Below, piece by piece: positions 9,241-30,634 of a stretch of DNA of 64,000 bases. The position numbers were made by a program, and so were the translations under genes. How positions within the stretch are numbered: position 1 is the first letter of the stretch; every line of letters begins with the position of its first letter. The stretch covers positions 33,045 through 97,044 of the forward strand of contig JAAYAJ010000023.1 of the NCBI GenBank assembly GCA_012719455.1. Reading direction: 5' to 3'. The DNA comes from Acidobacteriota bacterium (GTDB lineage: Bacteria > Acidobacteriota > UBA6911). The notes under the pieces were generated by a model, which saw only the letters and a program-made list of their open reading frames with translations, had not been told where the DNA came from and searched no databases.

Positions 9241-9451
9241 CCGACCTCAAGGCGTCTCTTCCCGCCGTGGCCGCTCCCGTCCGTGGTCGACATCCACGAG
9301 AAGGATCCTGCCCGCACCGGAGCCGGGCATCCATGCAAAACACCCGAATCCAGCTCTCCATTGCGGGCATTTTGCAATGCTCGACGGTCTCTTGCCGCAT
9401 CCGGCGGGCCGTCCCCCCGCGATTATGGCCCCGGCGCGGGTCCCGGCCGAT

Positions 9452-9467
9452 TGGCACGACTCCTGCA
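9452..9467 (+). promoter_or_regulatory. sigma-54 promoter of the NifX-like/MinD/MinD/EBP operon
   Basis: TGGCACgactccTGCA: a perfect -24 TGGCAC, exact GG-N10-GC spacing, and a -12 TGCA. It sits 64 bp upstream of the ATG at 9531. Confidence 0.6.
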
Positions 9468-9530
9468 TGGTCACCAGTGCGGCACCGCTGTGCGGCGCCG
9501 CGAAAATCTCTTCCAGGAGGTAGTCACCAA

Positions 9531-9896
9531 ATGAAAATCGTCATCAGTTCCCAGGGGAACACGCTGGATTCCATGGTAGACCCCCGCTTTGGACGGGCGG
9601 CGCAGTTCATCCTCTATGACACGGAAACGGAGAAGTTCGAAGTTCTCTCCAACCAGCAGAGCCTGAACGCGACGCAGGGCGCCGGCATCAAGGCGGCCGA
9701 GACCCTGTCCGGTCGCGGAGCCGAAGCGCTGATCACCGGCCACTGCGGTCCCAACGCGTTCCAAACCCTGTCGGCCGCCGGCATCGCCATATACATCGGG
9801 GCCGACGGGCTCACGGTGGCCCAGGCCATCGACAAGTTCAAGGCCGGCGAGCTCCGCACGGCGCAAGCGCCCGACGTCAAGGGCCACTGGCAATGA
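9531..9896 (+). CDS. NifX/NifB-like dinitrogenase FeMo-cofactor family protein, paralogue 2
   Basis: 121 aa, MKIVISSQGNTLDSMVDPRFGRAAQFILYD...ITGHCGPNA. RBS AGGAGG. Overlaps the next gene by 4 nt. Confidence 0.75.
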   Translation: MKIVISSQGNTLDSMVDPRFGRAAQFILYDTETEKFEVLSNQQSLNATQGAGIKAAETLSGRGAEALITGHCGPNAFQTLSAAGIAIYIGADGLTVAQAIDKFKAGELRTAQAPDVKGHWQ

Positions 9897-10780
9897 TCAT
9901 CGCGATCGCTTCCGGGAAGGGGGGGACCGGGAAAACGACCATCGCGACCAACCTCGCCATGTGTCTCCAGAAACCGGTCCGGCTGCTGGATTGCGACGTC
10001 GAGGAGCCCAACTGCCACATTTTCCTGAATCCCGACCTGGACGGCGGCGAACGGGCCACACTTCCCGTGCCCGTCATCGACGAAGGGCTGTGCAACAATT
10101 GCGGCGAATGCGGCCGCATCTGCCAGTTCAACGCCATCGTTTCGCTGAAGACGAAACCGCTGGTCTTCCCCGCCCTGTGCCACGGGTGCGGGGGATGCAT
10201 GCGGGTGTGCCCCACCGGGGCGATCAGCGAGGAGGGGCGCGAAATCGGCACTGTCGAGACCGGGACCAGCGGCCATATCGAATTCGTCCAGGGACGCCTT
10301 GACGTGGGGCAGGCACAGAGCCCTCCCCTGATCCGGGCCGTCAAGCGGCACATCGCGGAAGAAGGGGTGACCATCATCGACTGCCCCCCGGGGACCTCCT
10401 GCCCGGTGATCGCCGCGCTGAAGGGGTGCGATTACGCCGTCCTCGTCACCGAATCCACCCCTTTCGGGCTGCACGACCTGAAGCTGGCCGTGGCTACCGT
10501 ACGGCTGCTTCACCTTGATTTCGGGGTCGTGATCAACCGGGCCACCCCGCACGATGTCATGGTCCGGGAGTATTGCAAAAAGGAGCGCATCCCGGTCCTG
10601 CTCGAGATCCCGGACGATCGCAGGGTGGCCGAGGCCTATTCGCGCGGCAAGCTGATCGTCGAGGCGGTGCCCGAACTGAGGGAGTCGTTCGAGCGGCTGT
10701 GCTGCGCCATCATATCGAGAATCCAGCATCGCGACGCGGCGCCGATTCCGTGCGCCGGGACCACACCGGGGGTGTCATGA
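9893..10780 (+). CDS. MinD/ParA-superfamily P-loop ATPase with inserted 4Fe-4S ferredoxin domains
   Basis: IAIASGKGGTGKTT Walker A. Two Cys clusters (CNNCGECGRIC and CHGCGGCMRVCP) are inserted after the P-loop. Confidence 0.75.
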   Translation: MIIAIASGKGGTGKTTIATNLAMCLQKPVRLLDCDVEEPNCHIFLNPDLDGGERATLPVPVIDEGLCNNCGECGRICQFNAIVSLKTKPLVFPALCHGCGGCMRVCPTGAISEEGREIGTVETGTSGHIEFVQGRLDVGQAQSPPLIRAVKRHIAEEGVTIIDCPPGTSCPVIAALKGCDYAVLVTESTPFGLHDLKLAVATVRLLHLDFGVVINRATPHDVMVREYCKKERIPVLLEIPDDRRVAEAYSRGKLIVEAVPELRESFERLCCAIISRIQHRDAAPIPCAGTTPGVS

Positions 10781-11688
10781 AAGAACTGGTGGTAATCAGC
10801 GGCAAGGGGGGGACCGGCAAGACCAGCCTGACCGCCTCGCTGGCCGCCCTGGCCGGCGACGCCGTGATCGCCGACTGCGACGTGGACGCGGCGGACCTTC
10901 ACCTGCTGCTCTCCCCCAAGGTGCTCAAGGTCGAGGAGTTCCGGAGCGGGCGCGAGGCCGTCATCCGTCCCGGAGACTGCATCGCCTGCGATGTCTGCCG
11001 CGACGTGTGCCGCTACGACGCCGTCCGCCCGGTCTTCGAAAACGGGCGCAAGGCGCACTATGCCGTGGACGCGATCGCGTGCGAGGGGTGCGGCGTGTGC
11101 GTCCGCTTCTGCCCCGAACACGCCATCGATTTCCCGGAACGGGTGTGCGGGGAGTACCGCATCGGCGAGACCCGCTTCGGCCCCATGGTTTACGCGCAAC
11201 TGGGAATCGGGGCGGAGAATTCGGGGAAGCTGGTATCGACCGTCCGCAAGGAAGCCCGCGCGATCGCCGACGACGGCAATGCACGCTGGATCCTGGTGGA
11301 CGGCCCGCCCGGCATCGCCTGCCCCGTCATTGCCTCCATCACCGGCAGTTCGCTCGCCCTGGTCGTGGTGGAGCCCACCCTTTCGGGCATCCACGACATG
11401 GAGCGGGTGCTCGAACTGACCCGCCACTTCGCCCTGCCGACCTTCGTCTGTATCAACAAATGGGAACTCAACCCACAGATGACCCAGGAGATCGAGGCCG
11501 CCGCACTGGCCGCCGGCGTCTCCCTGGCGGGGAGGATCGGTTACGACCGGGCGGTCACGGACGCGCAGATCCGGGGCCTGACGGTAGTGGAACACGGGGG
11601 TCGGGCGGCGGAGGATATCCGCGCCGTGTGGGCCGCCCTGGCCGACGCGCCGGGCGCTCCGGCGGCGCCCGCAACCATGGAAGTCTGA
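10777..11688 (+). CDS. MinD/ParA-superfamily P-loop ATPase with inserted 4Fe-4S ferredoxin domains (second paralogue)
   Basis: VVISGKGGTGKTS Walker A. Cys clusters CIACDVCRDVC and CEGCGVCVRFCP. The start was re-picked at the ATGA overlap with the upstream gene (the ORF track extends to 10573). Confidence 0.75.
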   Translation: MKELVVISGKGGTGKTSLTASLAALAGDAVIADCDVDAADLHLLLSPKVLKVEEFRSGREAVIRPGDCIACDVCRDVCRYDAVRPVFENGRKAHYAVDAIACEGCGVCVRFCPEHAIDFPERVCGEYRIGETRFGPMVYAQLGIGAENSGKLVSTVRKEARAIADDGNARWILVDGPPGIACPVIASITGSSLALVVVEPTLSGIHDMERVLELTRHFALPTFVCINKWELNPQMTQEIEAAALAAGVSLAGRIGYDRAVTDAQIRGLTVVEHGGRAAEDIRAVWAALADAPGAPAAPATMEV

Positions 11689-11694
11689 CCGGCC

Positions 11695-13096
<1,402 letters not shown>

Positions 13097-13110
<14 letters not shown>

Positions 13111-13735
13111 TGATGTCTCCCAGGATGATGTCGGTCGCGATCCTCGCCCCGATCCCCGGGAGCATGCTGCACTTTTCGAACCCCTTCTCCTGCTCGAACC
13201 TCGCCATGTTCTCGGGACTGGCACCCGGATCCATGTAGCGGCCGAAGACAACGTCCTCCTGGATCTTGGGACAGGTGTAGGCGCCCACGGCCTCTCCGAA
13301 CCGCTCCATGAACTGCTTCGCCATCCCCATGGCGGCTCCCATGGATTCGAAATCCCCCAGGTCGTCGCTCCCCCGGTAGAGGCCGATGGCAGCGAGTCCC
13401 CCGGTCACCCCCCCGCACATCCAACCGGTGCTCCCGAACCCGGGGAACGGGGAGAGGGCGCGCAGGACCTCTACGCTGCCCAGCCCGAACTCCTCCATCA
13501 CCGCCAGCGCCGTGCCGCGCGCGCAGTTCCCGGCGAAGTAGTTGTACTCCTCGGCTCGCAGTTCGACCCGGGCCAGGATCCGTTCCCGATCGCGCAACGC
13601 CTCATCCGCACCGGGGAGCTTCCGGCTGAATCCCGCCGCGACGGCCGCCCGGCACCGGGCCTCGATGGCGGCCATATCCCATTCCCGCCCGGCCAGGGCC
13701 TTCAATTTCACCTGCAGCGCCTTGTAATCCGCCAT
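13097..13735 (-). CDS. C_GCAxxG_C_C family protein (putative redox-active)
   Basis: 212 aa with the NCARGTALAV and GWMCGGVTGG motifs typical of PF09719. Confidence 0.55.
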
Positions 13736-13901
13736 GGAATCTCCTCACCGTTGCGGGGAAAAGCCGGGCCGCATCGGCCACGATGGTCGCCCGGGGTTTG
13801 CCGGCCCCGCCCCGCCGAAACCCCGGCGCCATTGTAGCCGAAGGCCGCAGGGATCCGTACCGGTTTTCGCCCCGGTCTCTCCTCATCCCCTGATCGAGCC
13901 C

Positions 13902-14513
13902 CTACGGCCGGCACCGCCCGCACGGCCGGAATCCCGCGGCAACAGCCTCTGCGCGCGATTGAAAGACCCGCGTACAGCGCTTGCAGTTGTAATCCGGGCA
14001 GGAGGGGGCGTGGAAGACACGGCTCCCCGTGTTTCCGTGATAAACGATTGACCGGTTTTCCGCCGAACCGGAGGAGGTTCCCGGCGCTCCCCACATCCCT
14101 ACACCGGCCTCCTTGGCATCCTGTTCCAGCCGGGCGAGGAGCCAGTCGGAATTGAAACGGCCGTAGTACCGGGCAAGCCCCGCCTTCAGGAGTTCCACGG
14201 AGAGATCGCGGCCGTCGTCGAGGTACACCCTGGCGACGGTACGGCCGTATGGGTCCTGCTCCTTTTCGATCACGGTGACGGTCTTCCCGGCCGCCATCCG
14301 GGTCGCGAACGCCTTCGCCTCCTGCGCGAAGGGCTCCTCCTTCTCCGGACAATCGATCCCCTCGAGCCGGATGCGGATCCTGCCGCCGTCCTTCGACACC
14401 TCCATCGTATCGCCGTCGATGACGAAGAGGCATTGCGCGGTGAAGGTTTGGGGCACGGCGGGGAGGCCGCACAGGAGCACGAAGATCAGGAGCAGGGAGC
14501 CGCGCGCGTTCAT
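13902..14513 (-). CDS. secreted thermonuclease (SNase-like) with C-terminal Cys-rich metal-binding tail
   Basis: Signal peptide. The SNase core segments IDCPEK and TVARV...DGRDLSVELLKAGLA are present. C-terminal CPDYNCKRC...CGRC. Confidence 0.65.
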   Translation of the reverse strand: MNARGSLLLIFVLLCGLPAVPQTFTAQCLFVIDGDTMEVSKDGGRIRIRLEGIDCPEKEEPFAQEAKAFATRMAAGKTVTVIEKEQDPYGRTVARVYLDDGRDLSVELLKAGLARYYGRFNSDWLLARLEQDAKEAGVGMWGAPGTSSGSAENRSIVYHGNTGSRVFHAPSCPDYNCKRCTRVFQSRAEAVAAGFRPCGRCRP

Positions 14514-14606
14514 TTCATCCTCCGATGAGACCGCAGGAACCCGTCGCCTTTGGCCTCCGCCGTGGCGGTCGATGAGCGGGGGATCGGCGCTTCCCTCCCG
14601 GAAGGG

Positions 14607-15782
14607 CTATTCACTCGAATAATTGTCGAAATAGCCCTGGATATGGATGATGGGCGTTCCCTTGTCGCCGCTTCCGCTCATCAGGTCGCACAGGGAGCCG
14701 ACGAGGTCGGACAGGCGCCGGGGCGTTGTCCCGATTGAGGCTTCCTTGCCCAGCAGGTCATTCCCCTTCCCGGAGATGATGGCCCGAATTCTCTTTTCCG
14801 CATCTCCCGCCGGCAGGCCCGCAAGCTCGTTGTCGGCGATGTACTTGATCTTGATTTCGTTCAGGGTCCCGTCAAGCCCGGAGGTGAACCCCGGAGCAAC
14901 CACCGGGTCGGCGAGTTCCCAGATCTTCCCAATGGGGTCCTTGAAGGCGCCGTCGCCGTAGACCATCACCTCGACGTGCTTTCCGGTCGCCTCGAAAAGA
15001 CGCCGGTGGATTCCTTCACAAAACGCCTGCGCCTCCCTCGGAAAGAGCTTCAGCCGCGTCGGCCCCGCCTGGTTCGATCCCAGGAGCCCGTATTCCGGAT
15101 TCCACCCGCCCCTTCGGGGCTTGTTCATCAGGTCGTCGAGGCCGACCACCGTCCTGCCGCCCGCGGCCAACAGCCTCGCCTTTATCCGTTTCCGGTCGTG
15201 GATGTGCGCCACCACCACATCCTTTGAATAATCCAGCGCCCGGAGAGGATCGTTGGCCAGCACGATCTCGACATTCCCGTCCACTCCAAGGCTCGTGTAG
15301 AGCTCGATATAATCCAGCCCGGTAAAGGGGTGCTTGAAACTGTGGCCGAAATGCCTCCGGTATTCCTCCTGCGAAATCACATCGGCATGCGGATCGATGC
15401 CGGCGGCCTCCATCCCGTCGACATCCATGAGGTGGTTGCCCACCTCGTCGCACGGGTAGCTCAGCATGACCGTCACATGCCTGCGGCTCATCGCCAGGCC
15501 TTTGAGGATCAACGAAAATCGGTTCCGGCTCAGGATGGGGAAGAGGACGACAAAACCGTCGGTGAAGAGCTCCAGGGCCTGCTCGGCGATTTCGGCCACC
15601 TCCACGTAATTCCCCTGCGAGCGCGCAAGGAGAGACTCGGTGACGCCGACAATGTCGCGGTCCTTGATTTCAAAGCCATGGCTCCGCGCGGCTTCCAGGA
15701 CGCAATCAACGACGATCCGCTCGAGGTCGTCCCCCTGGCAGATGAGCGGGGCCCGGATGGCGCGGGCCTGGGTGCCGATCAT
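14607..15782 (-). CDS. CofE-like (F420-0:gamma-glutamyl ligase family) protein with a large internal insertion
   Basis: Pattern similarity to CofE at the N-terminus (PLICQGDDLERIV...RDIVGVTESLLARSQG), in the middle (GKHVEVMVYGDGA) and at the C-terminus (CDLMSGSGDKGTPIIHIQG). About 390 aa versus about 250 for canonical CofE. An alternative GTG start lies at 15791. Confidence 0.45.
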   Translation of the reverse strand: MIGTQARAIRAPLICQGDDLERIVVDCVLEAARSHGFEIKDRDIVGVTESLLARSQGNYVEVAEIAEQALELFTDGFVVLFPILSRNRFSLILKGLAMSRRHVTVMLSYPCDEVGNHLMDVDGMEAAGIDPHADVISQEEYRRHFGHSFKHPFTGLDYIELYTSLGVDGNVEIVLANDPLRALDYSKDVVVAHIHDRKRIKARLLAAGGRTVVGLDDLMNKPRRGGWNPEYGLLGSNQAGPTRLKLFPREAQAFCEGIHRRLFEATGKHVEVMVYGDGAFKDPIGKIWELADPVVAPGFTSGLDGTLNEIKIKYIADNELAGLPAGDAEKRIRAIISGKGNDLLGKEASIGTTPRRLSDLVGSLCDLMSGSGDKGTPIIHIQGYFDNYSSE

Positions 15783-15950
15783 TCTTCGCACTGACTCCTC
15801 CTTATGTACCGTCCGGCGCCGCGAAAGCGCAGGCCCCTCCAGCCTCCGCCGCCACGGCGGGGCGGCCGGAAGAAGGCATTGTCGCACGAGTCAACGTCCC
15901 CTGCAATGGCACCCCATCGGCGGGATCTTGCACCTCGGGGCGGCGCCGTC

Positions 15951-18398
15951 TCAGATCCGGTTCTCACTCCGGGAGATGAGGTCATCCTGGCAGTCGCGCG
16001 TCAACTCCACGAAATAGGCGGAGTACCCGGCAATGCGCACCACCAGGTTGCGGTGCTCTTCGGGAGCCTCCTGCGCCTTGCGCAGCAGCTCGGTCGACAC
16101 CACGTTGAACTGGGCTTCCGCGCCGCCCTTGTGCATGTACGTCTTCACCATGTCGCGCAGCTTGGCAATCCCGTCATCGCGGCTCAGAGAGGTGGGATGC
16201 AGCCGGATGTTCAGACAGACGCCGTCCATGAATTTGCTGTGGTCGTAGCAGAGCGAGGAGAGAAACACGGCGGTGGGGCCGTTGGTGTCCCGCCCCTGCA
16301 CCGGGGAGGCGGCATCGGCGATGGGGGTCCCGGCCTTTCTGCCGTCGGGCGTCGCCCAGGTGGTATACCCCTGTCCCACGTGGTCCGCCGCCCCGTACAG
16401 GCCGGCCTTGAAGATCCTGGTACGGGCGGAATAGCATTCCTTGCAGCTTTCGTAATAGGCGTTGATCACCCAGGCCATCTGCTCGTCGGCATAGGGGTCG
16501 GCATTCCCGAAATGGGGCACTTCGTGGATGATCCGCTGCCTCAGCTCCTCGTACCCCACCCAGTCGGCCATCACGGCGTCGTACAGCTCCCGCGCCGTGC
16601 ACAGCTTCCGGTCGAACACCATGTACCGGATAGCGGTCAGGGAGTCCGCCACCGTGGCCAGGCCGGTCGCGGTCCCTCCGTAGGAATTGTACTTGGCCCC
16701 TCCCCAGGTGCAATCCTTGCCCGACTCCATGCAGCCGTCGAGCGAAATGGACAGCATCGGGTGCGGCGTGTGGTACTGGACCAGGTACTCGAGATAATTG
16801 TTCAGGCTCACCTGGGCCTTGAGGAAGTAGCGGGCCAGGGTGCGCCAGGCCTCCCGGACCTCTTCGAACGACTTCATGTCGTACAGGTAACCGGTGTGGA
16901 TCGAGCACTGCTCACCGTTGTAGGGATTCTTGCCGTCGTTGATCGCCATGGCCACCAGCTTGCTGTAGTGGATGGAGGCGTGCGGGGGAGCCACCCCGTT
17001 GGCCGAGGCGTAGTCGTTCCCCGAGCCGGTGATCTCCTGGCAGCCGATGATGGCGTAGTCCCGGGCGTCCTCGAGGGTGAAGCCCAGCTCCCTGACGATT
17101 CCGGGGATGATGACTTCGTCGTTCTGGAACAGCGGCAGCCCGCCCACCTTGGTCGAGGTCTCCAGGGCCAGGGCCCACAGCTCGTCCGGGGTGCCCTTGT
17201 GGACCCGCAACGAGATCGTGGGGTCATGGAGGCTCAACCGGGCCAGGCTCTCCAGCACCATGGAGGTGACGGGGTTGCTGGCGTCCGCGCCCGTGGCGGG
17301 GTCCACCCCGCCGATGGTGGTGTGGAGATAGGTGTTGCCGATGCCGATGATCTTGACCAGTTCGCCGGCGCCCCCGCCGTACATGGAGTTGACCTTCATG
17401 AAGAAGCAGTCGACGATCTCCTGTGCCTCTTCAATCCCCAACCGGCCTTCTTCCAGGTCTTTCTTCAGGTAAGGCCAGGTGTACTGGTCGAAGCGCCCGA
17501 AGGAACCCACCCCGGCGATGAAGCTCAGGCGCAGGATGTACTGGTAGGTGATCGCCGCCTGGCACGCCTCGCGGAAGGTGCGGCAGGGGTTTTCCGAGAT
17601 CCATTCCAGGCTGTCCGCCATCGACTCCAGTTCGGCCCGGCGCTTCGAATCGGCGCAGGAAGCGGCCTTTTCCAGGCACTTCTCCGCGTAGCGCCTCAGG
17701 AGGATCGTCGCGGCGTCGCAGGACAGGACGACGCCGTTGTAGAACAGGCTGCGCTGGACATCCTCCCCCATGAGGTTGTTGACGTGGGCGTCCAGCCATT
17801 CCTGGGCCTGCCGGCGGATGGCGCCGTAACCCGTGTCGATGATCTTCCGGAAGCCCGGGGTCAGGTGGCCGCTCGGCATCATCAGCAGGGGTGCGCCCTT
17901 GACCGTGGCGGAGACCTCCAGGCGGCAGAGTTCCTCGTACCCCTCCGGCTGCCAGGCGGCCGCGATATCGTTGTATGTGCGCCCCTTCCAGTATTCGCGG
18001 ATCGACGCCAGGTCTTCATAATCCTCGGGAGCTATCGACATGCGCAGCTCCTCTTCGTCGGGATTGTGGTACAGACCGTCCTCCCTGAGGGTCCAGACGC
18101 CGTTTTCGATCATGGCCGGGAGCCATTCGCCGTTGCCCCAGTCGGGCATGTACCCGGCGCCGCAGAAATTCCGGCTGCTGTTGCCGACGATCATTTCGAA
18201 GTCCTCGACCCTGACCGTCATCTGCTCGCAGATCGCCTTCAGCACCGTGGGGCGGCGCAGGCAGGGGATGAGATTCTCATTCTCCTGGAAGCAACGCGTC
18301 GTGATCATGGCGCTTTCCGAGTCGCTCTGGATAACACGATCCCGGATCAATTGATGCATGAGCTGCATGCGCTCGCTTACGGGCTTGAATTTGTACAT
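15951..18398 (-). CDS. glycyl radical enzyme (PFL-like, PFL2/glycerol-dehydratase-type family), 815 aa
   Basis: C-terminal glycyl radical motif RIAGYSAYFVEL. Candidate catalytic Cys loop IIGCQEITG. The ATG at 18398 has a GGGGAGGACGAC RBS. The ORF track extends further upstream only through non-coding-looking sequence. Confidence 0.85.
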   Translation of the reverse strand: MYKFKPVSERMQLMHQLIRDRVIQSDSESAMITTRCFQENENLIPCLRRPTVLKAICEQMTVRVEDFEMIVGNSSRNFCGAGYMPDWGNGEWLPAMIENGVWTLREDGLYHNPDEEELRMSIAPEDYEDLASIREYWKGRTYNDIAAAWQPEGYEELCRLEVSATVKGAPLLMMPSGHLTPGFRKIIDTGYGAIRRQAQEWLDAHVNNLMGEDVQRSLFYNGVVLSCDAATILLRRYAEKCLEKAASCADSKRRAELESMADSLEWISENPCRTFREACQAAITYQYILRLSFIAGVGSFGRFDQYTWPYLKKDLEEGRLGIEEAQEIVDCFFMKVNSMYGGGAGELVKIIGIGNTYLHTTIGGVDPATGADASNPVTSMVLESLARLSLHDPTISLRVHKGTPDELWALALETSTKVGGLPLFQNDEVIIPGIVRELGFTLEDARDYAIIGCQEITGSGNDYASANGVAPPHASIHYSKLVAMAINDGKNPYNGEQCSIHTGYLYDMKSFEEVREAWRTLARYFLKAQVSLNNYLEYLVQYHTPHPMLSISLDGCMESGKDCTWGGAKYNSYGGTATGLATVADSLTAIRYMVFDRKLCTARELYDAVMADWVGYEELRQRIIHEVPHFGNADPYADEQMAWVINAYYESCKECYSARTRIFKAGLYGAADHVGQGYTTWATPDGRKAGTPIADAASPVQGRDTNGPTAVFLSSLCYDHSKFMDGVCLNIRLHPTSLSRDDGIAKLRDMVKTYMHKGGAEAQFNVVSTELLRKAQEAPEEHRNLVVRIAGYSAYFVELTRDCQDDLISRSENRI

Positions 18399-18794
18399 GT
18401 CGTCCTCCCCTTTATCCCAGCCTTTATTATAGCAGCGGGCGGGGGGAAAAGGCGGCAGGGATATTGCGCCATCGGCCGCCGCGGCGGCGGGTTCCTTCCG
18501 CGGCGCCTTCCGGTTTACCGTCCCCGCTTGCCGCGATCGGCGGATCCTCCTGATGCGGCAAGCATTGCGTGGTGCCGCAGGGGAGGGGTAAAAACGGCTT
18601 TCACCCGTACACCTGCGACCGGGATGAGAGAGTTTCCCCCGCCCATGGCGCACTTTTGGTATCTTTTTGGACCCAAAGGATGGTACACAAAAAAGAACGA
18701 TCGATAACGGGGTGTGATCGATCCACGACAAACCGGGTGAAGCCTCGAAAGCAGCGCAGGGCGACACAGGATTTGCAGAAAAGGAGATCCCGAC

Positions 18795-20804
18795 ATGCTG
18801 ACGAAGAATACGCGTCTGTTGCCGTTGGTCTTTGCATCCATGGCTATGGCCGCCGCGGCCTTTGCGCTCGATTACTCCGGCAGGCAGAAGAACCCGGCTA
18901 CCTTCGAAACCCTCGAAGAGGCCCGCTTAAGCGGGCCCGTCGCCGTCGCAGCCCTCGAGGGGAACGTCGGGGGGACCTTCAAATCCCACCCGGTCCTGGA
19001 CGGTTACCCGGCCGACACCACCTACATCTACCGGTCGCCGAACCTGTACGGCGGACGCGCCGCGGCCCGGATCAACACCAACCTCCTCGTGTTTGCAGAG
19101 AGATCCTTCCCCGGCAAGGACGCGGCCCGGCGCTACCTCGAAGACCTCGGGCTGATCCGCATCATCGACGAGGCGATCGGCAGCGTCATCCTGGTCACCC
19201 CGGCCAACGGGAAGGCCTTCGGCCCCAACGACCAGAAATACTACTATGCCCTCCAGACGGCCATCTTCGCGCAGAAGGCGGGAGAAAGCTCCGGGCCGGC
19301 CTTTGGCGGCGCTCCCGGAGCGGGCGCCAAGCCCGCCTTGGGCGCCCCCGCTGCGCCCGCAGGCAAGCCCGGTCCCGGGACCGTGCCGGGTCCCGGGATG
19401 TTCGGGGCGCGGGGAGCCAGGTATTCCGACGCCGAGTATTTCGGCGGCTTCGGCTATACCTATGTCATCGGGATCGACGGCGGAGCCGCCTACCTGAACA
19501 ACTACGTCGCGGGAACCCTCGACTACGTCAGCAGGATCGCCGGGATGCTGCTGATCAATGGAAGCATGGAAACCGGCCGCGAGGTCGCCGCCCTGGTTCC
19601 CGTATACCTGGTGAACGCACCCGACCGGGTGGTGGAAGCCTACAAGAAAGCCAACGATACGGACGCCTATGAAAAAACCGGGGAGGTGGAGGCGTTCTTC
19701 GACCAGTCCCTGCCGCTGAAGAGAGTGGTTGTGGCCCGGGACCGGAACCCGGACATCGCCCGGCATATCAGGAACGCCTACTACGACTTGTTCATCAAGG
19801 CGATGCGCGTACCGGTGGGGAGAGCGGGCCTCCACAGCGCTTCCACCCCTTACCAGGGTTACAGCATGGATCAGGCGCCGTTATCCCTCTGCGAACGGAA
19901 CGCCGTCATCGGCGGCGCCACCCGGGACGGCATTCGTGTCATCGGCCGCAGCGAGGACAGGTTCAGCCACATCAAGACCCCGGGCGGCGAATACCTGCAG
20001 ACCTGGTTCGAATACCTGCCCGATGAAGTGCTGCAAAAGACCGCCCCGACCGGGACCGTGCCCCTGGTTCTCGCCAACCACGGAGGCGGGGACGACCCCC
20101 GGCAGTTCATCGAGGAAATCGGCCTGCTGCCGCTGGCCGGCCGCGAGCGCTTCGCCATGGTCGCACCGGAGCATCAGAGCATCGGCTCGGTGCTTTCCGA
20201 ATCCCTCCCCGCCCTGGTGGAATACATGCTCGCCACTTATCCCGCACTAGACCCGGCGCGCGTGTACGTCACCGGGTATTCCATGGGCGGAGCTGCGACC
20301 CTGAGGGCCGTCAACGGAAAACCGTCCCTGTTCGCCGCGGCGGTGCCGATGGCGGCGGCCCCCTACACCGGGACCCCGGAACAAGCGGCCCGGCTTCAAA
20401 AGGCCCGCCTGCCGATCATGTTCACCACTTCCTCTTTTGACTTGGGGGGCGCGTTCGATCAGACCCGGGGCGCCATCGCCGGCGGATACCAGGCTCAGCT
20501 CAACCTGTTCCTCGGCTACAACGGGATGGACAAGATAGCGGCGTATGATTTCGAGGCTTACCCGGTGAACGGGTTCAAGGCCGACCGGATGCTGCGGGTG
20601 CGGCTCAACGGCGAATACGACAACTACCTCTGGTACCTCAACGACGGCGCCGGCGTCCCCATGGTCGCGCTCTCCTACACCATGAACCTCCAGCACGCCC
20701 TCTACCCGGAATACGGCAGGATCGCGTGGGAATTCTTCAAGCGCTACTCCCGCGACCCCCGGACCGGGAAAATCCGCTACCACCCGCACGGCGGAGGATT
20801 TTAG
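18795..20804 (+). CDS. secreted alpha/beta-hydrolase esterase (PHB-depolymerase/feruloyl-esterase-like C-terminal domain)
   Basis: Signal peptide MLTKNTRLLPLVFASMAMAAAAFA. Carries a Gly/Pro/Ala-rich linker and a C-terminal domain with the nucleophile elbow GYSMGG. Confidence 0.65.
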   Translation: MLTKNTRLLPLVFASMAMAAAAFALDYSGRQKNPATFETLEEARLSGPVAVAALEGNVGGTFKSHPVLDGYPADTTYIYRSPNLYGGRAAARINTNLLVFAERSFPGKDAARRYLEDLGLIRIIDEAIGSVILVTPANGKAFGPNDQKYYYALQTAIFAQKAGESSGPAFGGAPGAGAKPALGAPAAPAGKPGPGTVPGPGMFGARGARYSDAEYFGGFGYTYVIGIDGGAAYLNNYVAGTLDYVSRIAGMLLINGSMETGREVAALVPVYLVNAPDRVVEAYKKANDTDAYEKTGEVEAFFDQSLPLKRVVVARDRNPDIARHIRNAYYDLFIKAMRVPVGRAGLHSASTPYQGYSMDQAPLSLCERNAVIGGATRDGIRVIGRSEDRFSHIKTPGGEYLQTWFEYLPDEVLQKTAPTGTVPLVLANHGGGDDPRQFIEEIGLLPLAGRERFAMVAPEHQSIGSVLSESLPALVEYMLATYPALDPARVYVTGYSMGGAATLRAVNGKPSLFAAAVPMAAAPYTGTPEQAARLQKARLPIMFTTSSFDLGGAFDQTRGAIAGGYQAQLNLFLGYNGMDKIAAYDFEAYPVNGFKADRMLRVRLNGEYDNYLWYLNDGAGVPMVALSYTMNLQHALYPEYGRIAWEFFKRYSRDPRTGKIRYHPHGGGF

Positions 20805-20836: not shown

Positions 20837-21376
20837 TCAGTAGCGCGACGCTATCCAGCCGCTGTTGCAAAGGGTGAAACATTCGCCGCACGATCGGCAG
20901 GAAAGCTCCGCTCCTTCCACCAGCGCCGGCCGGCGTTCGACGCCGCGGCCCTTGAAGTAGATCCTGTTCTCTTTCTTGATCTCCGCGCAGTAGCGGAGGC
21001 AGCGCCCGCACTGGCTGCAGTCCGCAATGCCCGTTTGAAAGCGCGAGGAGGTGACCCCGTATTCCTCGGCGTACGTCTGCCAGGAAGGCCAGAGGAGTTC
21101 AATGACCATCTTGCGGATCTTGACCACCGTCTCCGTCTTCGTCCACACCCGGAGACCTTCTTCGATGGGATAGACGCAGGACGCCACGACCCTCTTGCGC
21201 CCCCCGGCGGTTTCGATCTCCACCATGCACATCCGGCAGGCGCCGAACGGCTCCAGCCGGTCGTCATCGCACAGGGTGGGTATTTCAATGCCGGCAGACC
21301 TGGCGGCCTGCAAAACGGTGGTTCCCGGCGCGCCCTCTACGGCACGACCGTCGATTTCCAATCGGATAGTATCCAC
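20837..21376 (-). CDS. NuoG-N-terminal-like / HoxU-like [2Fe-2S] + [4Fe-4S] iron-sulfur protein (GTG start)
   Basis: The 2Fe-2S ferredoxin-type segment (LCDDDRLEPFGACRMCMVE) is followed by 4Fe-4S Cys clusters (CSQCGRCLRYC; CRSCGECFTLC). It has no catalytic/molybdopterin domain. The GTG start has a GGGAGG RBS 11 nt after the NuoF-like stop. Confidence 0.6.
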   Translation of the reverse strand: MDTIRLEIDGRAVEGAPGTTVLQAARSAGIEIPTLCDDDRLEPFGACRMCMVEIETAGGRKRVVASCVYPIEEGLRVWTKTETVVKIRKMVIELLWPSWQTYAEEYGVTSSRFQTGIADCSQCGRCLRYCAEIKKENRIYFKGRGVERRPALVEGAELSCRSCGECFTLCNSGWIASRY

Positions 21377-21387
21377 GACGCCTCCCG

Positions 21388-23304
21388 CTACCTTGAAGTT
21401 CCGGCCAGGCCAATCTCTTCGGCGGATTTCCGCAGGACCGCACCCGCCGGAACCTTGACGACAGCACCGAATTTTGCAGGGCATGCCTTTAAGCAGGCGC
21501 CGCACTTGATGCACTTCTCATGGACGATGGTGAAAACACCCGCCTCCGACTTGTCGATGGCGTCCACCGGGCAGTTGCGCTGGCAGGCGCCGCAGGCCTG
21601 GCATTTCTCCTGGTCGATCTCGTAGGCGATGAGCGCCGTGCAAATGCCGGCGCGGCATCGTCCATGCCGGATGTGCTCCTCGTATTCCTCCCGGAAATAC
21701 TTCAGGGTGCTGGCCACCGGATTGGGCGCCGACTGGCCCAGCGCACAGAGAGATGCGACCTGCATGAATTCGGCCAGCTCCTCGAGGATTTCGAGATCCC
21801 CCTCCCGACCTTTCCCCGCGGCGATGTTGTCGAGGATGGCTAGCATCTGGCGAATCCCTTCGCGGCAGGGAACGCACTTGCCGCAGGACTCGTGTGCGAG
21901 GAAGCTGGTGTAGTACCGCGCGGTATCCACCATGCAGGTGTTTTCGTCCATGACGATCATGCCGCCCGACCCCATCATGGAACCCGCCTTGGTGAGTTCG
22001 TCAAAATCGACCGGAAGATCGAGGAGGGCCGCAGGAATGACACCGCCGGAAGGTCCACCGGTCTGCACGGCCTTGAACGATTTCCCGTCGGGAACCCCTC
22101 CGCCGATCTTGAAAATGATGTCGCGGAGCGGGATTCCCATCGAAACTTCCACCAGCCCCGTGTTTTTGACCTTGCCTACCAGGGAAAAGATCTTGGTGCC
22201 CTTGCTCCCTTCCGTCCCCATCCCACGGAACCAGTCGGCGCCCTTGTCGATGATATGGGGAACGGTGGCCCAAGTCTCGACGTTGTTCAGGCAGGAGGGT
22301 TTGCCCCAGAGCCCTTTCTCCGATGTGTGCACGTATTTGGGGCGCGGTTCACCGACACGCCCTTCGATGGCGCTCATCAGGGCGCTGGATTCCCCGGAAA
22401 CGAAGGCCCCGGCCCCGCGATGAATGACGACGTCGAAGGAGAATCCGGATCCGAGGATGTTCCTGCCGAGCAGCCCGTATTCGCGCGCCTGCTCAATGGC
22501 GATCTCGATGCTCTTGCGCGCCAGGGGATACTCCTGGCGCACGTAGATGAACCCTTCCGCGGCTCCAATCGCATAGGCGCCCAGGATCAGCCCTTCCAGG
22601 ACGCTGTGCGGGTTTCCCTGGAGCAGGCTGCCGTCCATGAAGGCGCCCGGATCCCCCTCATCAGCGTTGACAATGACATATTTCGGTTCGCCGGGAGCGT
22701 TGCGCGTGGTTTCCCACTTCCGGCCGGCGGGAAATCCGCCGCCGCCGCGGCCGCGCAGGTTGGCCTTTTTCACTTCGTGGAGCACCGATTCGGGCGTCAT
22801 TTCGGAAAGAGCCTTCGCCAGCGCGCCGTATCCGCCGACGGCGATGTAGTCCAGGATGCTGGAGGAGTCGATCCTGACGTTGTCCCCGAGCAGGACGCGC
22901 TCCTGGTGCCTGTAGAAGGGGATGTCCTGCAAGCGCTCGATGCGCTCGCCGGTTCCTTCATCGAGGTACAGGAGGTCGCGGACCGGACCTTCACCCGCGC
23001 CGAGCCCGTCGATGATGGGCGCCGCGTGCTTCGGCTGCACTTTGGTATAGCAGGTGTCGGAGGGGTGGATCACCACCAACGGGGCGCCTTCGCAGAAACC
23101 GTGGCACCCGGTCCGGCGGACGCCGACTTTGTGCCCGAGACCGCGCTTTTCGATCTCGCCATCCAATGCGTCCGCCACCGCCTCGGCGCCGCAGGCAAGA
23201 CAACCCGATCCCGTACACACCTCCAGCCAGTCCTTGGCGTTGCGCTGGGCGACGGCCTCCGCTCTCAATTTTTCAAGATCCGCGACGGTCTTCAAGCGTT
23301 TCAT
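21388..23304 (-). CDS. NuoF/HoxF-like NAD(H)-binding FMN flavoprotein subunit with N-terminal thioredoxin-like 2Fe-2S and C-terminal 2x[4Fe-4S] domains
   Basis: 638 aa. The FMN/NADH site carries the GRGGGGFPAGRKWE and ESCGKCVPCREG motifs. The C-terminal CxxCxxCxxxCP is present twice. Confidence 0.85.
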   Translation of the reverse strand: MKRLKTVADLEKLRAEAVAQRNAKDWLEVCTGSGCLACGAEAVADALDGEIEKRGLGHKVGVRRTGCHGFCEGAPLVVIHPSDTCYTKVQPKHAAPIIDGLGAGEGPVRDLLYLDEGTGERIERLQDIPFYRHQERVLLGDNVRIDSSSILDYIAVGGYGALAKALSEMTPESVLHEVKKANLRGRGGGGFPAGRKWETTRNAPGEPKYVIVNADEGDPGAFMDGSLLQGNPHSVLEGLILGAYAIGAAEGFIYVRQEYPLARKSIEIAIEQAREYGLLGRNILGSGFSFDVVIHRGAGAFVSGESSALMSAIEGRVGEPRPKYVHTSEKGLWGKPSCLNNVETWATVPHIIDKGADWFRGMGTEGSKGTKIFSLVGKVKNTGLVEVSMGIPLRDIIFKIGGGVPDGKSFKAVQTGGPSGGVIPAALLDLPVDFDELTKAGSMMGSGGMIVMDENTCMVDTARYYTSFLAHESCGKCVPCREGIRQMLAILDNIAAGKGREGDLEILEELAEFMQVASLCALGQSAPNPVASTLKYFREEYEEHIRHGRCRAGICTALIAYEIDQEKCQACGACQRNCPVDAIDKSEAGVFTIVHEKCIKCGACLKACPAKFGAVVKVPAGAVLRKSAEEIGLAGTSR

Positions 23305-24380
23305 GCCTGCGCCTCCTCCCTCTGCATTGTTTTGATGATTTTGTCAAGCCGGCTCCGGTCGGGATCCCGATAGTAGTCGCTGTCGATCTGGATCACCGGC
23401 GCCAGGGCGCAGCATCCCAGGCAATGAACGGTCTCCAGGGTGTAGGTGAGGCGGCTGTCCGTCTGTCCCGGTTGCAGACCCAGGGCGGCGGAGACCCTGC
23501 TCAGCAGTTCGGAGCTCCCCCGCACGTGGCAGGCCGTCCCGGTGCAGACCTGGAAAGAATGACGCCCCCGTGGTTCCAGGCTGAACGCCTCGTAGAAGTG
23601 CACGATTCCGTAGATCTCGCGCAGCGGAACGTCGAGTCTGCCGGATATCCATTCGAGGATGTGGCGCGGAAGCCAGTGAAACTTCTCCTGGACGTCCAGG
23701 AGCGTCTGGATGAGCGCATTCTTCCGGAAGCCGTAGCTGCGCATGATGGCGTCGGCTTGCAGGAGATCCTCGCGGATTTCGGCAATGGCGCGTCCCTTGT
23801 CCCAGGTCCGACCCAGGCTCTGCGCGTGGCGTTTCGCCTCTGTCTCGAGGCCGGCCAGCTCCTCGAGCAGCGTACGCTTTCCCATGCCCAGGGAGTAGGC
23901 TTCCTCGAGGAGTGCAAGCGCCTGAAGCAACAGGTCCTGTTTCATCCTGGGCGCGTGGGCCCGCCTGCGCAACCTGCCGAGCTCCACCCCGCGCCGCACC
24001 GACTCCAGGAGCCTTTCGGGATTGACCGGCTTGGCCAAATAATCGTGGGCTCCCAGCCGCATCGATTCCACCGCGGAATCCACCGTCCCCTTCCCGGTCA
24101 TGACGACCGGTACCGTGGCGGATGCGGCCTCGGCCAGGCGGCCGAGCGCCTCGAATCCGGCCACACCCGCAATCTCGGGATCCAGGAGTACGACGCTCGG
24201 ATTGTCCGCTTCCGCCATCCGGAGGCCCTGCTCCCCATCCCCCGCGACGGCGACGCGATAACCGTCCTCCTCCAGGATCCGGCGACAAGCCTCCGCGGAG
24301 GCGGCATCGTCATCGATAATGAGCACATCCAGCGGGGGCGATGCCTCCGGACCAATGACTGTCATCCTACGGGAATTCAT
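23301..24380 (-). CDS. response-regulator receiver domain fused to NuoE/HoxE-like [2Fe-2S] thioredoxin-like subunit
   Basis: N-terminal REC domain: DVLIIDDD, the phospho-acceptor in VVLLDPEI, VVMTG, and LAKP. C-terminal NuoE motif CTGTACHVRG...HCLGCCALAP. Overlaps the NuoF-like gene by 4 nt. Confidence 0.7.
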   Translation of the reverse strand: MNSRRMTVIGPEASPPLDVLIIDDDAASAEACRRILEEDGYRVAVAGDGEQGLRMAEADNPSVVLLDPEIAGVAGFEALGRLAEAASATVPVVMTGKGTVDSAVESMRLGAHDYLAKPVNPERLLESVRRGVELGRLRRRAHAPRMKQDLLLQALALLEEAYSLGMGKRTLLEELAGLETEAKRHAQSLGRTWDKGRAIAEIREDLLQADAIMRSYGFRKNALIQTLLDVQEKFHWLPRHILEWISGRLDVPLREIYGIVHFYEAFSLEPRGRHSFQVCTGTACHVRGSSELLSRVSAALGLQPGQTDSRLTYTLETVHCLGCCALAPVIQIDSDYYRDPDRSRLDKIIKTMQREEAQA

Positions 24381-25167
24381 AGACAACCTCTGTAATTGGC
24401 TACGTTTATGATAATGCTGCGTACCCCCGCCCGCCGACGCCCCGTCCCCGTCGGAGCTTTCCGGGCCTTGGCCCAAGGCCTCAGCCAAGTTTCCTGGGGG
24501 CCGAAATGGCATCGCTTGCGGGATTTCAACTGCCGTCATCCGGAAGGCTCGGCCTGTGCTTCTCGCGTTCTTGTGCAGTATTTACAAATGCTGTTTGCGG
24601 CAGGTCCGGTGTTTATCCTCGCCTTCCGGCATCCGCCGATCTCATTCCCGGGCGGTTCCTGTTACACTCGACGATTTGCGCCGCTTCCAGGCATGTTGCC
24701 AACCACCGGTGATTGCCAATCATGTTGAGCAAACCAGCCTTGCAGCGTTTCGGCGACAACTTCCTCCCTTTCAGAACCGTCATTGTATCGTCGCCCGCCC
24801 GAAAAACCAAGCAAGACAATGAGGCAGTCGCCGGGGGGATCGATGATGCAGCATGGCCGCCCCTTCCTCGAACCTGGAGAACGTCCGATCCAGGGGGGGG
24901 CAGCCCCGGCACGACCAGGGCGGGAATCACTCCCAGACCGGTCACCTCCTGGGACACCCACTCGAAGCCGAAGGGAGCGTCCGATTTAGCCCCATCCGTT
25001 TACTCCATCCTTTCCGCTTTCTCCGCCCGCTCAATCCGCATATAATGGCCTCAGGGTTTCTCCAGTTTCCAAGGCGTTAGAGGAAGAACTTTCCGAATCG
25101 GCGCCCGCGGCCCATTGCGCGGCAACGGACCGGTTTCCACGCGGATCCTTTACAACGGGAGGGAGAC

Positions 25168-26284: not shown

Positions 26285-26317
26285 AGGACAGGCAGGAAGA
26301 GGCGGGAACCGGCGCGG

Positions 26318-28273
26318 TCAACGGGACTTGCGGGGGCCGTAATGCGGGACGGGGGCGCCCCGTTCGTAGGCCCCCAAATCGGGCAACCGGCCGTGGTAGC
26401 CGTCATTGACATTCGGCAGGATGATCCCGGCATCGACCGCTTTCGAGCCGGCACGCAGGCGGAAGTCCAAATCCCTCGCATCATGCAGCCTGCCGGGATC
26501 TTCCGTCGTCAGGGCCGGAACATTTTCAAAAATGTCGTAGTCCAGCAGTACGCTGTGTACATCGTGCCCGGTAGCTGCGCTGTATTCCGCCAGGGTCCGA
26601 AAACGCCGCTCGACGCGCTTTCCGGTGAAATCCGCCGCCTTCCCGAAATCGGGCGATTTCCAGATGAAGGACACCTCCGCGCCGGGGTTCGGGCGGAAAC
26701 CGTTGTAATCCGAACTGGAATAATTCGTCGCGGTATCCACGCTGAACACCTCCTGCGCGGCGCCCTGTCCCAGGATCAGGTTGTTGCGATAGTGCAGGTT
26801 GGAGGCCTGGTCCATGGAAAGCACTTCGGAGGTAAAGGTGTTGTGGTAGACAAGGATGCCCGTGCTGTTGGCGGTGAACTTGACCGATCCCCCTTCCGGC
26901 GCGTGGTACACGATGTTGCGGATGAAATAGACCGGGCCCCCGAGAACGGGTTGCGTGCTCAGCGAACGATGCGCCTGGTTGAAGCAGCGGTTACGCAGGA
27001 CCCGGATGTTGTGCATGACGCCGTCGGCCTCGATGCAGTTGTCATCCACGTTGGTGATGTCGTTATTGTAGATATCGATGGATACCGGCATCCGTTCGCG
27101 GATCGGGTCGGGGTTGCCGTCCGGCTCGCCGTACGTCGCGTGATCGATGCCGTCGTGGAAGTTCGCAACATAGTTGTAGGCGATTACGTGTCCGGAACCG
27201 TAGACCTTCACAGCCAGTTCCGAAAGGACCGGCGTAGGATAGCCGGGAGTGCCCTGCCACACCCGCCCGATCCAGCCCTCCAGCCTTTCGGGATGACTCT
27301 TGCCGATAAACGTGTTGTCGGCGATGTAGAAATCTTTCGAGCCCGACCAGTCCGTATAGATCCCTCGCCCGATATTTTCCAGGCGGCAATTCTTGACACT
27401 CAACCCCACGGCTCCCGCCACTCCCTTGTGGCCGGCCTGGAAGGCCACTTCGGTGTTGCGGATGGTCAGGCCCTCGAAATAAAGGTAATCGGCTCCCATT
27501 ACGTCAAAAAGAACATGGTTGCCGGCTCCGTCAAAGATCGCCTCGCCGTCGCCGGCCGCCACGATGGCGATCGGTTTCTCCGCCGTTCCACTCTGGCGAA
27601 AGCGGTAGGTGCCGTCAAACAGCAGGCCCAGCTGGTTCGCGTAACGATAGCGGTCTTCCCGGTAAAGACCGGCATGAACCAGAATCGTATCTCCGGGTTT
27701 CACCCGGGGCGGGTAGGCGTTAAACCAGTCCGCGCCGTTTGCCTGGGTATAAAACGCGGCCAGAAGCCCCGTGAACGAAGGCTCCTGCTTTTTCCCTTTA
27801 AACCCCGGGGGGTACACGTGGAAAACGCGTCCCCCGGCATAGGGGCGAGGTTCGGCGCGGGTGCGGACCACGAATTGCCGGCGCGCGGTGTTTTCGACGC
27901 CGTCGGGGTCAGTCATTTGGAGGAGGACCTCGTACTCCGTATCTTCCTGCAGGTCCATGATGCTGCCGGCGAACATGTTCGGCGTTACGTAATCGTAGGC
28001 GCCGTAAGTGTTGATCATTTGTTCCCGCTGCAGGCGCAGAAGCGGCAAGCCGTCACGCCACCGGTCCTCTCCCACCTTCCGGTACTGTACCGCAACGCCG
28101 GCATTGCGGTTGGCGTCGCCGTCAATGCGCCACTCAAAGCCCAGCGATATCAGCGTGGGGGGCCCGACGATGAATTCGCCCGCCCGTGTTTTGTTTTCTT
28201 CCGCCGGCAACGCAACGGCCGATAGAAACAGCGGCACCATCAAGGAGAACAGCAGTCGCAGGATTGTCTTCAC
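26318..28273 (-). CDS. secreted right-handed parallel beta-helix repeat protein (pectin-lyase-fold; possible polysaccharide lyase/hydrolase)
   Basis: GTG start with a GGGAG RBS. Signal peptide VKTILRLLFSLMVPLFLSAVALPA. Repeated short beta-helix-like segments and NxxxN-type repeats (IYNNDITNVDDNCIEADG, IRNIVYHAPEGG). Confidence 0.55.
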   Translation of the reverse strand: MKTILRLLFSLMVPLFLSAVALPAEENKTRAGEFIVGPPTLISLGFEWRIDGDANRNAGVAVQYRKVGEDRWRDGLPLLRLQREQMINTYGAYDYVTPNMFAGSIMDLQEDTEYEVLLQMTDPDGVENTARRQFVVRTRAEPRPYAGGRVFHVYPPGFKGKKQEPSFTGLLAAFYTQANGADWFNAYPPRVKPGDTILVHAGLYREDRYRYANQLGLLFDGTYRFRQSGTAEKPIAIVAAGDGEAIFDGAGNHVLFDVMGADYLYFEGLTIRNTEVAFQAGHKGVAGAVGLSVKNCRLENIGRGIYTDWSGSKDFYIADNTFIGKSHPERLEGWIGRVWQGTPGYPTPVLSELAVKVYGSGHVIAYNYVANFHDGIDHATYGEPDGNPDPIRERMPVSIDIYNNDITNVDDNCIEADGVMHNIRVLRNRCFNQAHRSLSTQPVLGGPVYFIRNIVYHAPEGGSVKFTANSTGILVYHNTFTSEVLSMDQASNLHYRNNLILGQGAAQEVFSVDTATNYSSSDYNGFRPNPGAEVSFIWKSPDFGKAADFTGKRVERRFRTLAEYSAATGHDVHSVLLDYDIFENVPALTTEDPGRLHDARDLDFRLRAGSKAVDAGIILPNVNDGYHGRLPDLGAYERGAPVPHYGPRKSR

Positions 28274-28311
28274 GATTTGGCTCCCGTTTCCTGGACCTTC
28301 TGAATTCCAGC

Positions 28312-30505: not shown

Positions 30506-30634
30506 TCGGGCGCACCTCCTCTCCGGCACCTGAGCCCATGTACCCCCCCTAACCGCTCATGGCGGCATAGTTCCTTCCCGTCCCCATCGTGCGCAAACGC
30601 GTTCTCGAAAAACGACGCCATCAAAGAACGATCG

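Follow-up and report, generated by a model that had tools for sequence, protein, structure and literature searches.

A solitary glycyl radical enzyme of the GCQEI clade and its CofE-like neighbour in an Acidobacteriota bacterium

The locus described here lies on a contig of an Acidobacteriota bacterium (GTDB lineage UBA6911; GenBank assembly GCA_012719455.1, contig JAAYAJ010000023.1). The window, meaning the whole stretch of DNA that was analysed, comprises 64,000 nucleotides (positions 33,045 to 97,044 of the forward strand), and all positions given below are counted from its first letter. The gene in question encodes a glycyl radical enzyme (GRE) of 815 residues and is followed on the same strand by a gene resembling F420-0:gamma-glutamyl ligase (CofE). 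A preliminary description of this DNA had suggested that the two proteins might act as a pair. Our reading, which is given a probability of roughly 0.6, is that the GRE is a functional, stand-alone member of a large uncharacterised clade, of the eliminase type and activated in trans, and that the CofE-like neighbour is unrelated to it.

The glycyl radical enzyme gene and its active site

The gene and the elements of its active site are located as follows.

15951 to 18398, minus strand: GRE gene, 815 residues, with PFL-like and Gly_radical Pfam domains; a member of the 'GCQEI' clade
16002 to 16037, minus strand: glycyl radical loop RIAGYSAYFVEL, residues 788 to 799, read directly from the sequence; G791 is the radical site
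17031 to 17045, minus strand: Cys loop GCQEI, residues 452 to 456, a CXE motif with Gln replacing the usual Val
17865 to 17867, minus strand: codon of His178, aligned with His164 of glycerol dehydratase (1r8w) and invariant in 85 of 85 clade sequences

The GRE open reading frame (ORF) spans 15951 to 18767 on the minus strand, and an internal ATG at 18398 yields the protein of 815 residues with the N-terminus MYKFKP. Upstream of this ATG there are a ribosome-binding site, GGGGAGGA, and a TATAAT box. The PFL-like barrel (PF02901, of the IPR004184 family; E 1.4e-145) covers residues 26 to 677 and the C-terminal Gly_radical domain (PF01228; E 3.4e-27) residues 694 to 797, confirming that the ORF ends with a canonical glycyl radical loop, as the preliminary description had stated. 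The core of that loop, RIAGYS, occupies residues 788 to 793, and RIAG[YF]S was found in 84 of the 85 clade sequences. At least 24 public contigs under the label Acidobacteriota encode the identical protein.

The class of the enzyme was evaluated with 12 NCBIfam equivalog models. The GRE fell below the cutoff in every one of them, the best score being 428 bits against a cutoff of 1000, where the cutoffs of the GRE models range from 1000 to 1150 bits. The nearest solved GRE is glycerol dehydratase (1r8w), which is only 33% identical over 778 aligned residues in a HMMER alignment, and no solved structure falls within the clade to which the window GRE belongs. This clade is absent from the GREs catalogued in a June 2026 review, according to which entire GRE clades are still without validation (PMC13450708). 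A literature search on the GCQEI clade, on GRE ether lyases and on GREs in methoxy-aromatic metabolism found no relevant paper. The earlier remark that the substrate class of this enzyme is not obvious thus holds.

The alignment with 1r8w places C453, E455, H178, Y357, Y668 and G791 of the GRE opposite C433, E435, H164, Y339, Y640 and G763, respectively, so that Cys453, Glu455, His178 and Gly791 are all retained. C453 also lies opposite the Cys of CutC, propanediol dehydratase (PD), HpzG and 9rco. At the Cys loop itself the window GRE has GCQEI, while glycerol dehydratase, CutC, propanediol dehydratase and 9rco all have GCVEP, and the loop therefore does differ from the GCVE type as had been noticed. 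The five residues G-C-Q-E-I, with C453-Q454-E455 among them, are invariant in 85 of 85 clade sequences. Also invariant in this alignment are H178, R302, D304, Q305, N355-T356-Y357, H359 and T361, together with G458, G460, P472, Y668, A670, H673 and Q676. The Cys-x-Glu motif as a definition of the GRE 1,2-eliminases and isomerases, the role of its glutamate, and that of glycerol dehydratase His164 as the proposed general acid have been reviewed (PMC13450708).

The activating enzyme and the distribution of the clade

Two other genes of the window bear on the question of activation.

29285 to 30556, minus strand: polyferredoxin, 424 residues, with Fer4_5 and dicluster domains; weak match to the activase model
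46113 to 46745, minus strand: small radical SAM protein, TatD-associated (TIGR04038, 171 bits against a cutoff of 129.7)

The operon arrangement of a GRE with an adjacent activase is not present at this locus. When three activases that adjoin orthologous GREs in other genomes were used as tblastn queries, no match was obtained in the 64-kb window. A hidden Markov model (HMM) of five activases, searched against all six-frame ORFs of the window, recognised only the ferredoxin domain at 29285 to 30556. This polyferredoxin was ruled out as an activase because it lacks a Radical_SAM domain and is matched through its ferredoxin motif. The radical SAM protein at 46113 to 46745 belongs to TIGR04038 and is unrelated to GRE activation. 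Both statements of the preliminary description on this point, that the window holds no activase and that its sole radical SAM gene is of a non-activase type, were borne out. Near the GRE of a sister species, whose locus is compared below, a radical SAM gene of 322 residues was considered and rejected as an activase, since its only matches are generic MoaA-like ones at 44 bits.

The clade was surveyed in one genome per species, with matches confirmed by the pattern IGCQEI[TV]G or by a second pattern, GNTY[LQ]H[TN]T[IV], and 405 confirmed members were found in species-representative genomes. Neighbourhoods were counted for the best 80 of these 405 species-level loci, over at most 10 kb on each side. 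An activase was present in 6 of the 80 loci and absent from 74; among the 39 loci whose flanks both extend for 5 kb or more, the corresponding numbers were 6 and 33. One of the six activases belongs to a different GRE, and direct adjacency of GRE and activase is limited to a single subclade, that of Sporomusa, Anaerofustis and Acetobacterium. In Alkalibaculum sporogenes, an activase that shares 70% identity with that of Sporomusa is encoded on a contig other than that of the clade GRE. Because just 6 of 80 loci hold an activase while activases exist elsewhere in member genomes, an unlinked activase is the rule for the GCQEI clade and not a peculiarity of the window. The specificity of GRE activases for their partners has hardly been studied (PMC13450708). 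The travel of this clade without an activase bears on that question and offers a natural test case.

Members of the clade are 59–89% identical to the window GRE and are spread across Acidobacteriota, Bacillota, Desulfobacterota and Coriobacteriia. In addition to Acidobacteriota, the hosts include Oscillospiraceae and Lachnospiraceae of termite gut and rumen, Sporobacter termitidis, Acetobacterium paludosum, Sporomusa acidovorans, Alkalibaculum sporogenes, Desulfatiglans, Desulfobacterales and Coriobacteriia. There are acetogens among them, and the habitats include peat, soil and digester for the Acidobacteriota as well as termite gut and rumen. The GREs of Acidobacteriota are 85–89% identical to those of Sporobacter and Papillibacter (Bacillota) and of metagenome-assembled genomes (MAGs) of Desulfobacterales and Desulfatiglandales. 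Such identity between phyla would imply recent cross-phylum horizontal transfer of the single GRE gene without an activase. Outside the invariant positions, other pocket-lining stretches sort the sequences into subclades, which suggests that specificity within the clade may have diversified.

Tandem or nearby GRE paralogues occur at 14 of the surveyed loci. Moreover, a second uncharacterised GRE type, here called GRE2 (about 800 residues, Cys loop GCVEPAGSGND, 38–39% identical), lies within 10 kb of a clade GRE, or on the same contig, in 7 genomes. On contig DBLB01000058.1 of Clostridiales UBA735 an activase stands beside GRE2, and the clade GRE lies over 10 kb away. The island formed around this activase and GRE2 holds genes for a 2-hydroxyacid dehydrogenase, DUF386, a URO-D-like protein, an OYE-like reductase, an Fe-ADH and an SDR, as well as PEP-mutase-family, Amidohydro_2 and ABC-transporter genes, and probably represents a catabolic pathway with two GREs. 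Other neighbours recur without being universal. Among the approximately 80 loci, SDR genes were found at 13, OYE-like reductases at 9, URO-D-like proteins at 8, transketolase at 6, PEP-mutase-family proteins at 5, and MATE and LysR proteins at 4 each. These neighbours, together with the habitats that the titles of the genome records suggest (termite gut, rumen, a peat experiment), hint at a plant-derived substrate. The host organisms presumably favour substrates of that kind.

The CofE-like gene, its variable slot and the surrounding genes

The segment downstream of the GRE contains the following features.

14607 to 15782, minus strand: CofE-like gene (PF01996/COG1478), long form, 391 residues, or 394 from a GTG at 15791; Pfam E 7.4e-51
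15093 to 15491, minus strand: insertion in the CofE-like protein, approximately residues 98 to 230; predicted alpha/beta subdomain
13902 to 14513, minus strand: staphylococcal-nuclease-like protein with an N-terminal signal-like sequence (Pfam SNase; NCBIfam nuclease and 'sunset' domain matches)
13874 to 15940: variable segment, made up of the CofE-like gene and the secreted nuclease; a sulfatase gene takes its place in the sister species

The CofE-like protein matches PF01996 with 173 bits, and the 218-position profile is stretched over residues 9 to 383, so that an insertion of about 150 residues must be accommodated. The likeness to CofE and the inserted segment, put at about 140 residues in the preliminary description, are therefore both real. 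An AlphaFold model built with 25 homologues had a pLDDT of 78 and a pTM of 0.75, and in its residues 103 to 214 strands and helices alternate, with block pLDDT values of 71–96. The best solved matches of this model in Foldseek were 2phn, 2g9i and 7uld, which are CofE of A. fulgidus (E 2e-7; TM 0.51–0.54 normalised to CofE; 11–15% identity). Against the CofE equivalog TIGR01916 the protein scored 36.9 bits, far short of the cutoff of 180.65, and only residues 11 to 72 matched; no PDB sequence match was obtained at E 0.01. The long form of about 395 residues is the norm of a very large family, mainly of Clostridia, Spirochaetia and others, in which all 8000 scored candidates had E <1e-5. Clostridia and Spirochaetia are not known to make F420. 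No F420 biosynthesis genes were seen among the called neighbours of the CofE-like gene or of the three homologues examined, a genome-wide survey not having been made. The protein is likely to be an amide-forming ligase that acts on a substrate other than F420.

A functional partnership of the GRE with the CofE-like ligase, in which the ligase would make or modify a cofactor or a substrate or substitute for the partner activase, was suggested by their arrangement. The genes share one orientation with 168 nt between them, and the same arrangement is seen on 10 contigs. However, all 10 are of the same species and the identical arrangement provides no independent evidence. By tblastn, a CofE-like gene was found within 10 kb of the GRE at none of the other 80 species-level clade loci. 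Conversely, homologues of the CofE-like protein in a Clostridium genome, a Clostridia MAG and a relative with 87% identity lie in unrelated contexts with no GRE neighbour. Furthermore, GREs require no organic cofactor (PMC13450708).

In the sister species the locus is syntenic, the GRE being 93% identical and the flanking genes 87–90% identical. An esterase gene is followed there by the GRE, the C_GCAxxG_C_C gene, the sigma-54 activator, two CbiA/Fer4 genes and a Nitro_FeMo-Co gene, but a sulfatase encoded on the opposite strand separates the GRE from the C_GCAxxG_C_C gene. In a blastn alignment of the two species, homology breaks off 10 nt past the stop codon of the GRE and picks up again shortly before the C_GCAxxG_C_C gene. 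Because homology breaks at both its ends, the segment from 13874 to 15940 is a replaceable cassette. The CofE-like gene is thus a chance neighbour in a variable slot and not a partner of the GRE; a functional pair is extremely unlikely, and neither joint action nor cofactor modification, both proposed in the preliminary description, was borne out. That description had also named the outcome that would count against its view, namely a characterised clade with a routinely unlinked activase and a neighbour that is not conserved. The last two parts were found, but the clade itself is uncharacterised. The result for this window removes a tempting but false gene pairing.

In the locus of the sister species, by its own numbering, a VapB antitoxin gene lies just upstream of the GRE (9504 to 9832) and the sulfatase just downstream of it (12518 to 14236), from which both flanks of the GRE appear to be prone to insertion and deletion.

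The remaining genes near the GRE include the nuclease listed above and two further units.

18795 to 20804, plus strand: alpha/beta-hydrolase or esterase, 669 residues, with a signal-like N-terminus; divergent from the GRE
about 9450 to 13110, plus strand: ORP-type cluster with a Nitro_FeMo-Co gene, CbiA/MinD-like Fe-S ATPases (9893 to 10780 and 10777 to 11688) and a PAS sigma-54 activator (11695 to 13110)

The nuclease, which has a C-terminal 'sunset' or Ada-type zinc-binding-like domain and belongs to the variable cassette, is unrelated to the GRE. The esterase is 88% identical in amino acids to the copy in the sister species and is the only GRE neighbour on that side that is conserved with it; a homologue was absent from the other 80 clade loci. 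Its product resembles a secreted esterase or a polyhydroxybutyrate (PHB)-depolymerase-like hydrolase. At about 26300 to 28300 there are a Pel9A-like beta-helix protein and another esterase. The esterases and the Pel9A-like protein are a possible hint of plant-polymer degradation near the GRE. The minus-strand genes from 20837 to 24539 encode a response-regulator/2Fe-2S-thioredoxin-like fusion, a NuoF-like flavoprotein (638 residues) and a Fer2/Fer4 protein, a conserved trio that is also found near the CofE-like homologue of the 87%-identical relative.

The ORP-type cluster gives an MrpORP-like match, and the best -24/-12 sigma-54 site of the window, with one mismatch, is located at 9452 to 9467 on the plus strand. 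The sigma-54 activator probably serves this cluster and not the GRE. No sigma-54 promoter was found upstream of the GRE on the minus strand from 18399 to 18794, and the window as a whole contained about as many matches as chance would give. A near-match picked out by eye, GGCAC..N..TGC, was rejected as a GRE sigma-54 site on account of its wrong spacing. An Rfam scan of 13000 to 19500 for a riboswitch or leader gave nothing at E <= 1, and a consensus scan showed no intrinsic terminator between the GRE and the CofE-like gene.

Predicted reaction and comparison with known enzymes

Eliminase or isomerase chemistry is favoured for the GRE because the Cys-x-Glu motif is kept, a His occupies the position of His164 and the best similarity is to dehydratases. 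Chemistry of the eliminase type with activation in trans is the most likely interpretation of these sequence features. In the proposed mechanism, a radical SAM activase from another part of the genome would put the radical on Gly791, from which it would be transferred to Cys453. The Cys453 thiyl radical would then take a hydrogen from the carbinol carbon of the substrate, and Glu455 would deprotonate the substrate hydroxyl to give a ketyl radical. Finally, the substituent on the adjacent carbon would leave, most likely as an oxygen leaving group protonated via His178. Reactions of this type are those of the GRE 1,2-eliminases and isomerases.

Several observations weigh against a functional, trans-activated eliminase. 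The eliminase assignment derives from sequence alignment only, and the CXE motif is also carried by GRE decarboxylases and isomerases. An AlphaFold2 model of the GRE made from a 14-sequence alignment had a mean pLDDT of 57, with active-site segments below 50, and was unusable for analysis of the fold or the pocket. The glycerol dehydratase ligands H281, S282 and D447 are replaced by G296, V297 and P472 in the GRE, the pairing of P472 with D447 being uncertain as it falls in an indel region. In a search with the five-activase profile, no protein from the contigs of this organism was among the top 120 matches. Gene neighbourhoods vary too much within the clade for a substrate to be named, and their enrichment is weak and heterogeneous. 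Last, Ala295-Gly296 (17511 to 17516, minus strand) occurs only in this species, close relatives having Gly-Asp. These residues lie in the beta-1 loop aligned with H281/S282 of glycerol dehydratase. The loop also appears, by residue numbering and not by alignment, to correspond to that of the essential Asp278 of HypD (PMC7077986). The change could have altered the specificity of the GRE, or even its activity.

The possibility was considered that the gene is an inactive relic, acquired horizontally without its activase, not activatable, and deprived of a conserved active-site Asp (D296G). The missing activase in 64 kb, the 85–89% identity across phyla, which suggests horizontal transfer, and the Ala-Gly pair confined to this species would all fit such a history. 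However, the ratio dN/dS against the sister species is 0.19. The GRE is under purifying selection and, being syntenic in both species, has been kept by vertical descent. Its reading frame is unbroken, every catalytic motif is present, and just 2 singleton changes were found at positions that are otherwise unchanged across 29 sequences of the subclade, a number that is typical of the subclade and represents no excess. Position 296 itself varies in other members of the clade, where Ala, Cys or Pro is found. A relic is accordingly considered very unlikely.

For the functional enzyme, the replaced glycerol ligands, an insertion of 5 residues after the Cys loop and the polar character of invariant residues point to a different and probably larger polar substrate. 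It is probably none of the substrates known for GREs, would be polar and larger than glycerol, and is possibly plant-derived.

An alternative assignment is that the GCQEI clade comprises decarboxylases of the arylacetate type, or enzymes of another radical reaction on aromatic or phenylpropanoid-derived acids, instead of eliminases. Decarboxylases too have a Glu two residues past the catalytic Cys, and SDRs, OYE-like enoate reductases and URO-D-like proteins recur as neighbours. The wider clade hosts Acetobacterium, Alkalibaculum and Desulfatiglans are organisms that we take to be aromatic degraders. Sporomusa and Sporobacter have been linked to methoxylated or lignin-derived aromatics (PMC4585845). 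The eliminase profiles nevertheless score higher against the GRE (HpsG 428, HpfG 418, HypD 403 and CutC 389 bits) than those of indoleacetate decarboxylase (IAD, 378 bits) and HPAD (294 bits). Moreover, the best solved-structure match is glycerol dehydratase, and the His at the His164 position of that enzyme is invariant in the clade. This alternative is thus regarded as unlikely, and the eliminase assignment is retained.

It is tentatively proposed, at slightly less than even chances, that the IGCQEI[TV]G clade together with GRE2 represents a previously unrecognised functional class among the glycyl radical eliminases or isomerases. The class would act on a substrate new to GREs, perhaps a polyol, hydroxy acid, hydroaromatic or ether derived from plants or lignin, and its genes would have spread singly between phyla by making use of resident non-cognate activases. 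Many uncharacterised GRE clades are already known, and the window locus is an ordinary solitary member of this one. The clade as a whole is a widespread and well-conserved GRE family, recognisable by its diagnostic Cys loop but without an assigned reaction, which makes it a target for enzyme discovery.

Among known systems, CofE (F420-0:gamma-glutamyl ligase; 2PHN, 2G9I, 7ULD) shares the PF01996 domain and the fold with the CofE-like protein, but is compact at about 250 residues, as opposed to 391 residues with an inserted alpha/beta subdomain. Chlamydial FolC2 (CT611), a COG1478 homologue that replaces FolC, is a glutamate ligase in an organism without F420 (PMC1971073). It sets a precedent for a CofE-like role outside F420 synthesis, although it is likened here by description and not by sequence, and no folate genes flank the CofE-like gene of the window or the three homologues examined.

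The GRE has the same fold and the same Cys/Glu/Gly apparatus as CutC (choline trimethylamine-lyase) and IslA/IseG (isethionate sulfite-lyase). CutC, however, has Asp at the position of His178, and the GRE scores lower against CutC and the C-S lyases than against the dehydratases. A sulfonate-binding Arg/Gln/Arg triad has been described for the C-S lyases (PMC13450708). With the B12-independent glycerol dehydratase of Clostridium butyricum (1R8W/1R9D) and the related PD, HpfG/HpsG and HypD it shares the PFL-like barrel and the Gly_radical domain. The glycerol/diol dehydratase group further shares with it the Gly loop R[IV]AGYSA, Cys-x-Glu, the His at His164 and the Tyr residues at Y339 and Y640. 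The 5-residue insertion after the Cys loop, which falls in the highly conserved GSGNDY..NG..PP segment, distinguishes the GRE from glycerol dehydratase, and the GRE departs from both glycerol dehydratase and CutC in a conserved D/H-V-x-Q-G stretch located on the strand that follows Y668. Finally, in contrast to the glycerol dehydratase group, the activase is usually not adjacent, and the Cys loop reads GCQEI instead of GCVEP.

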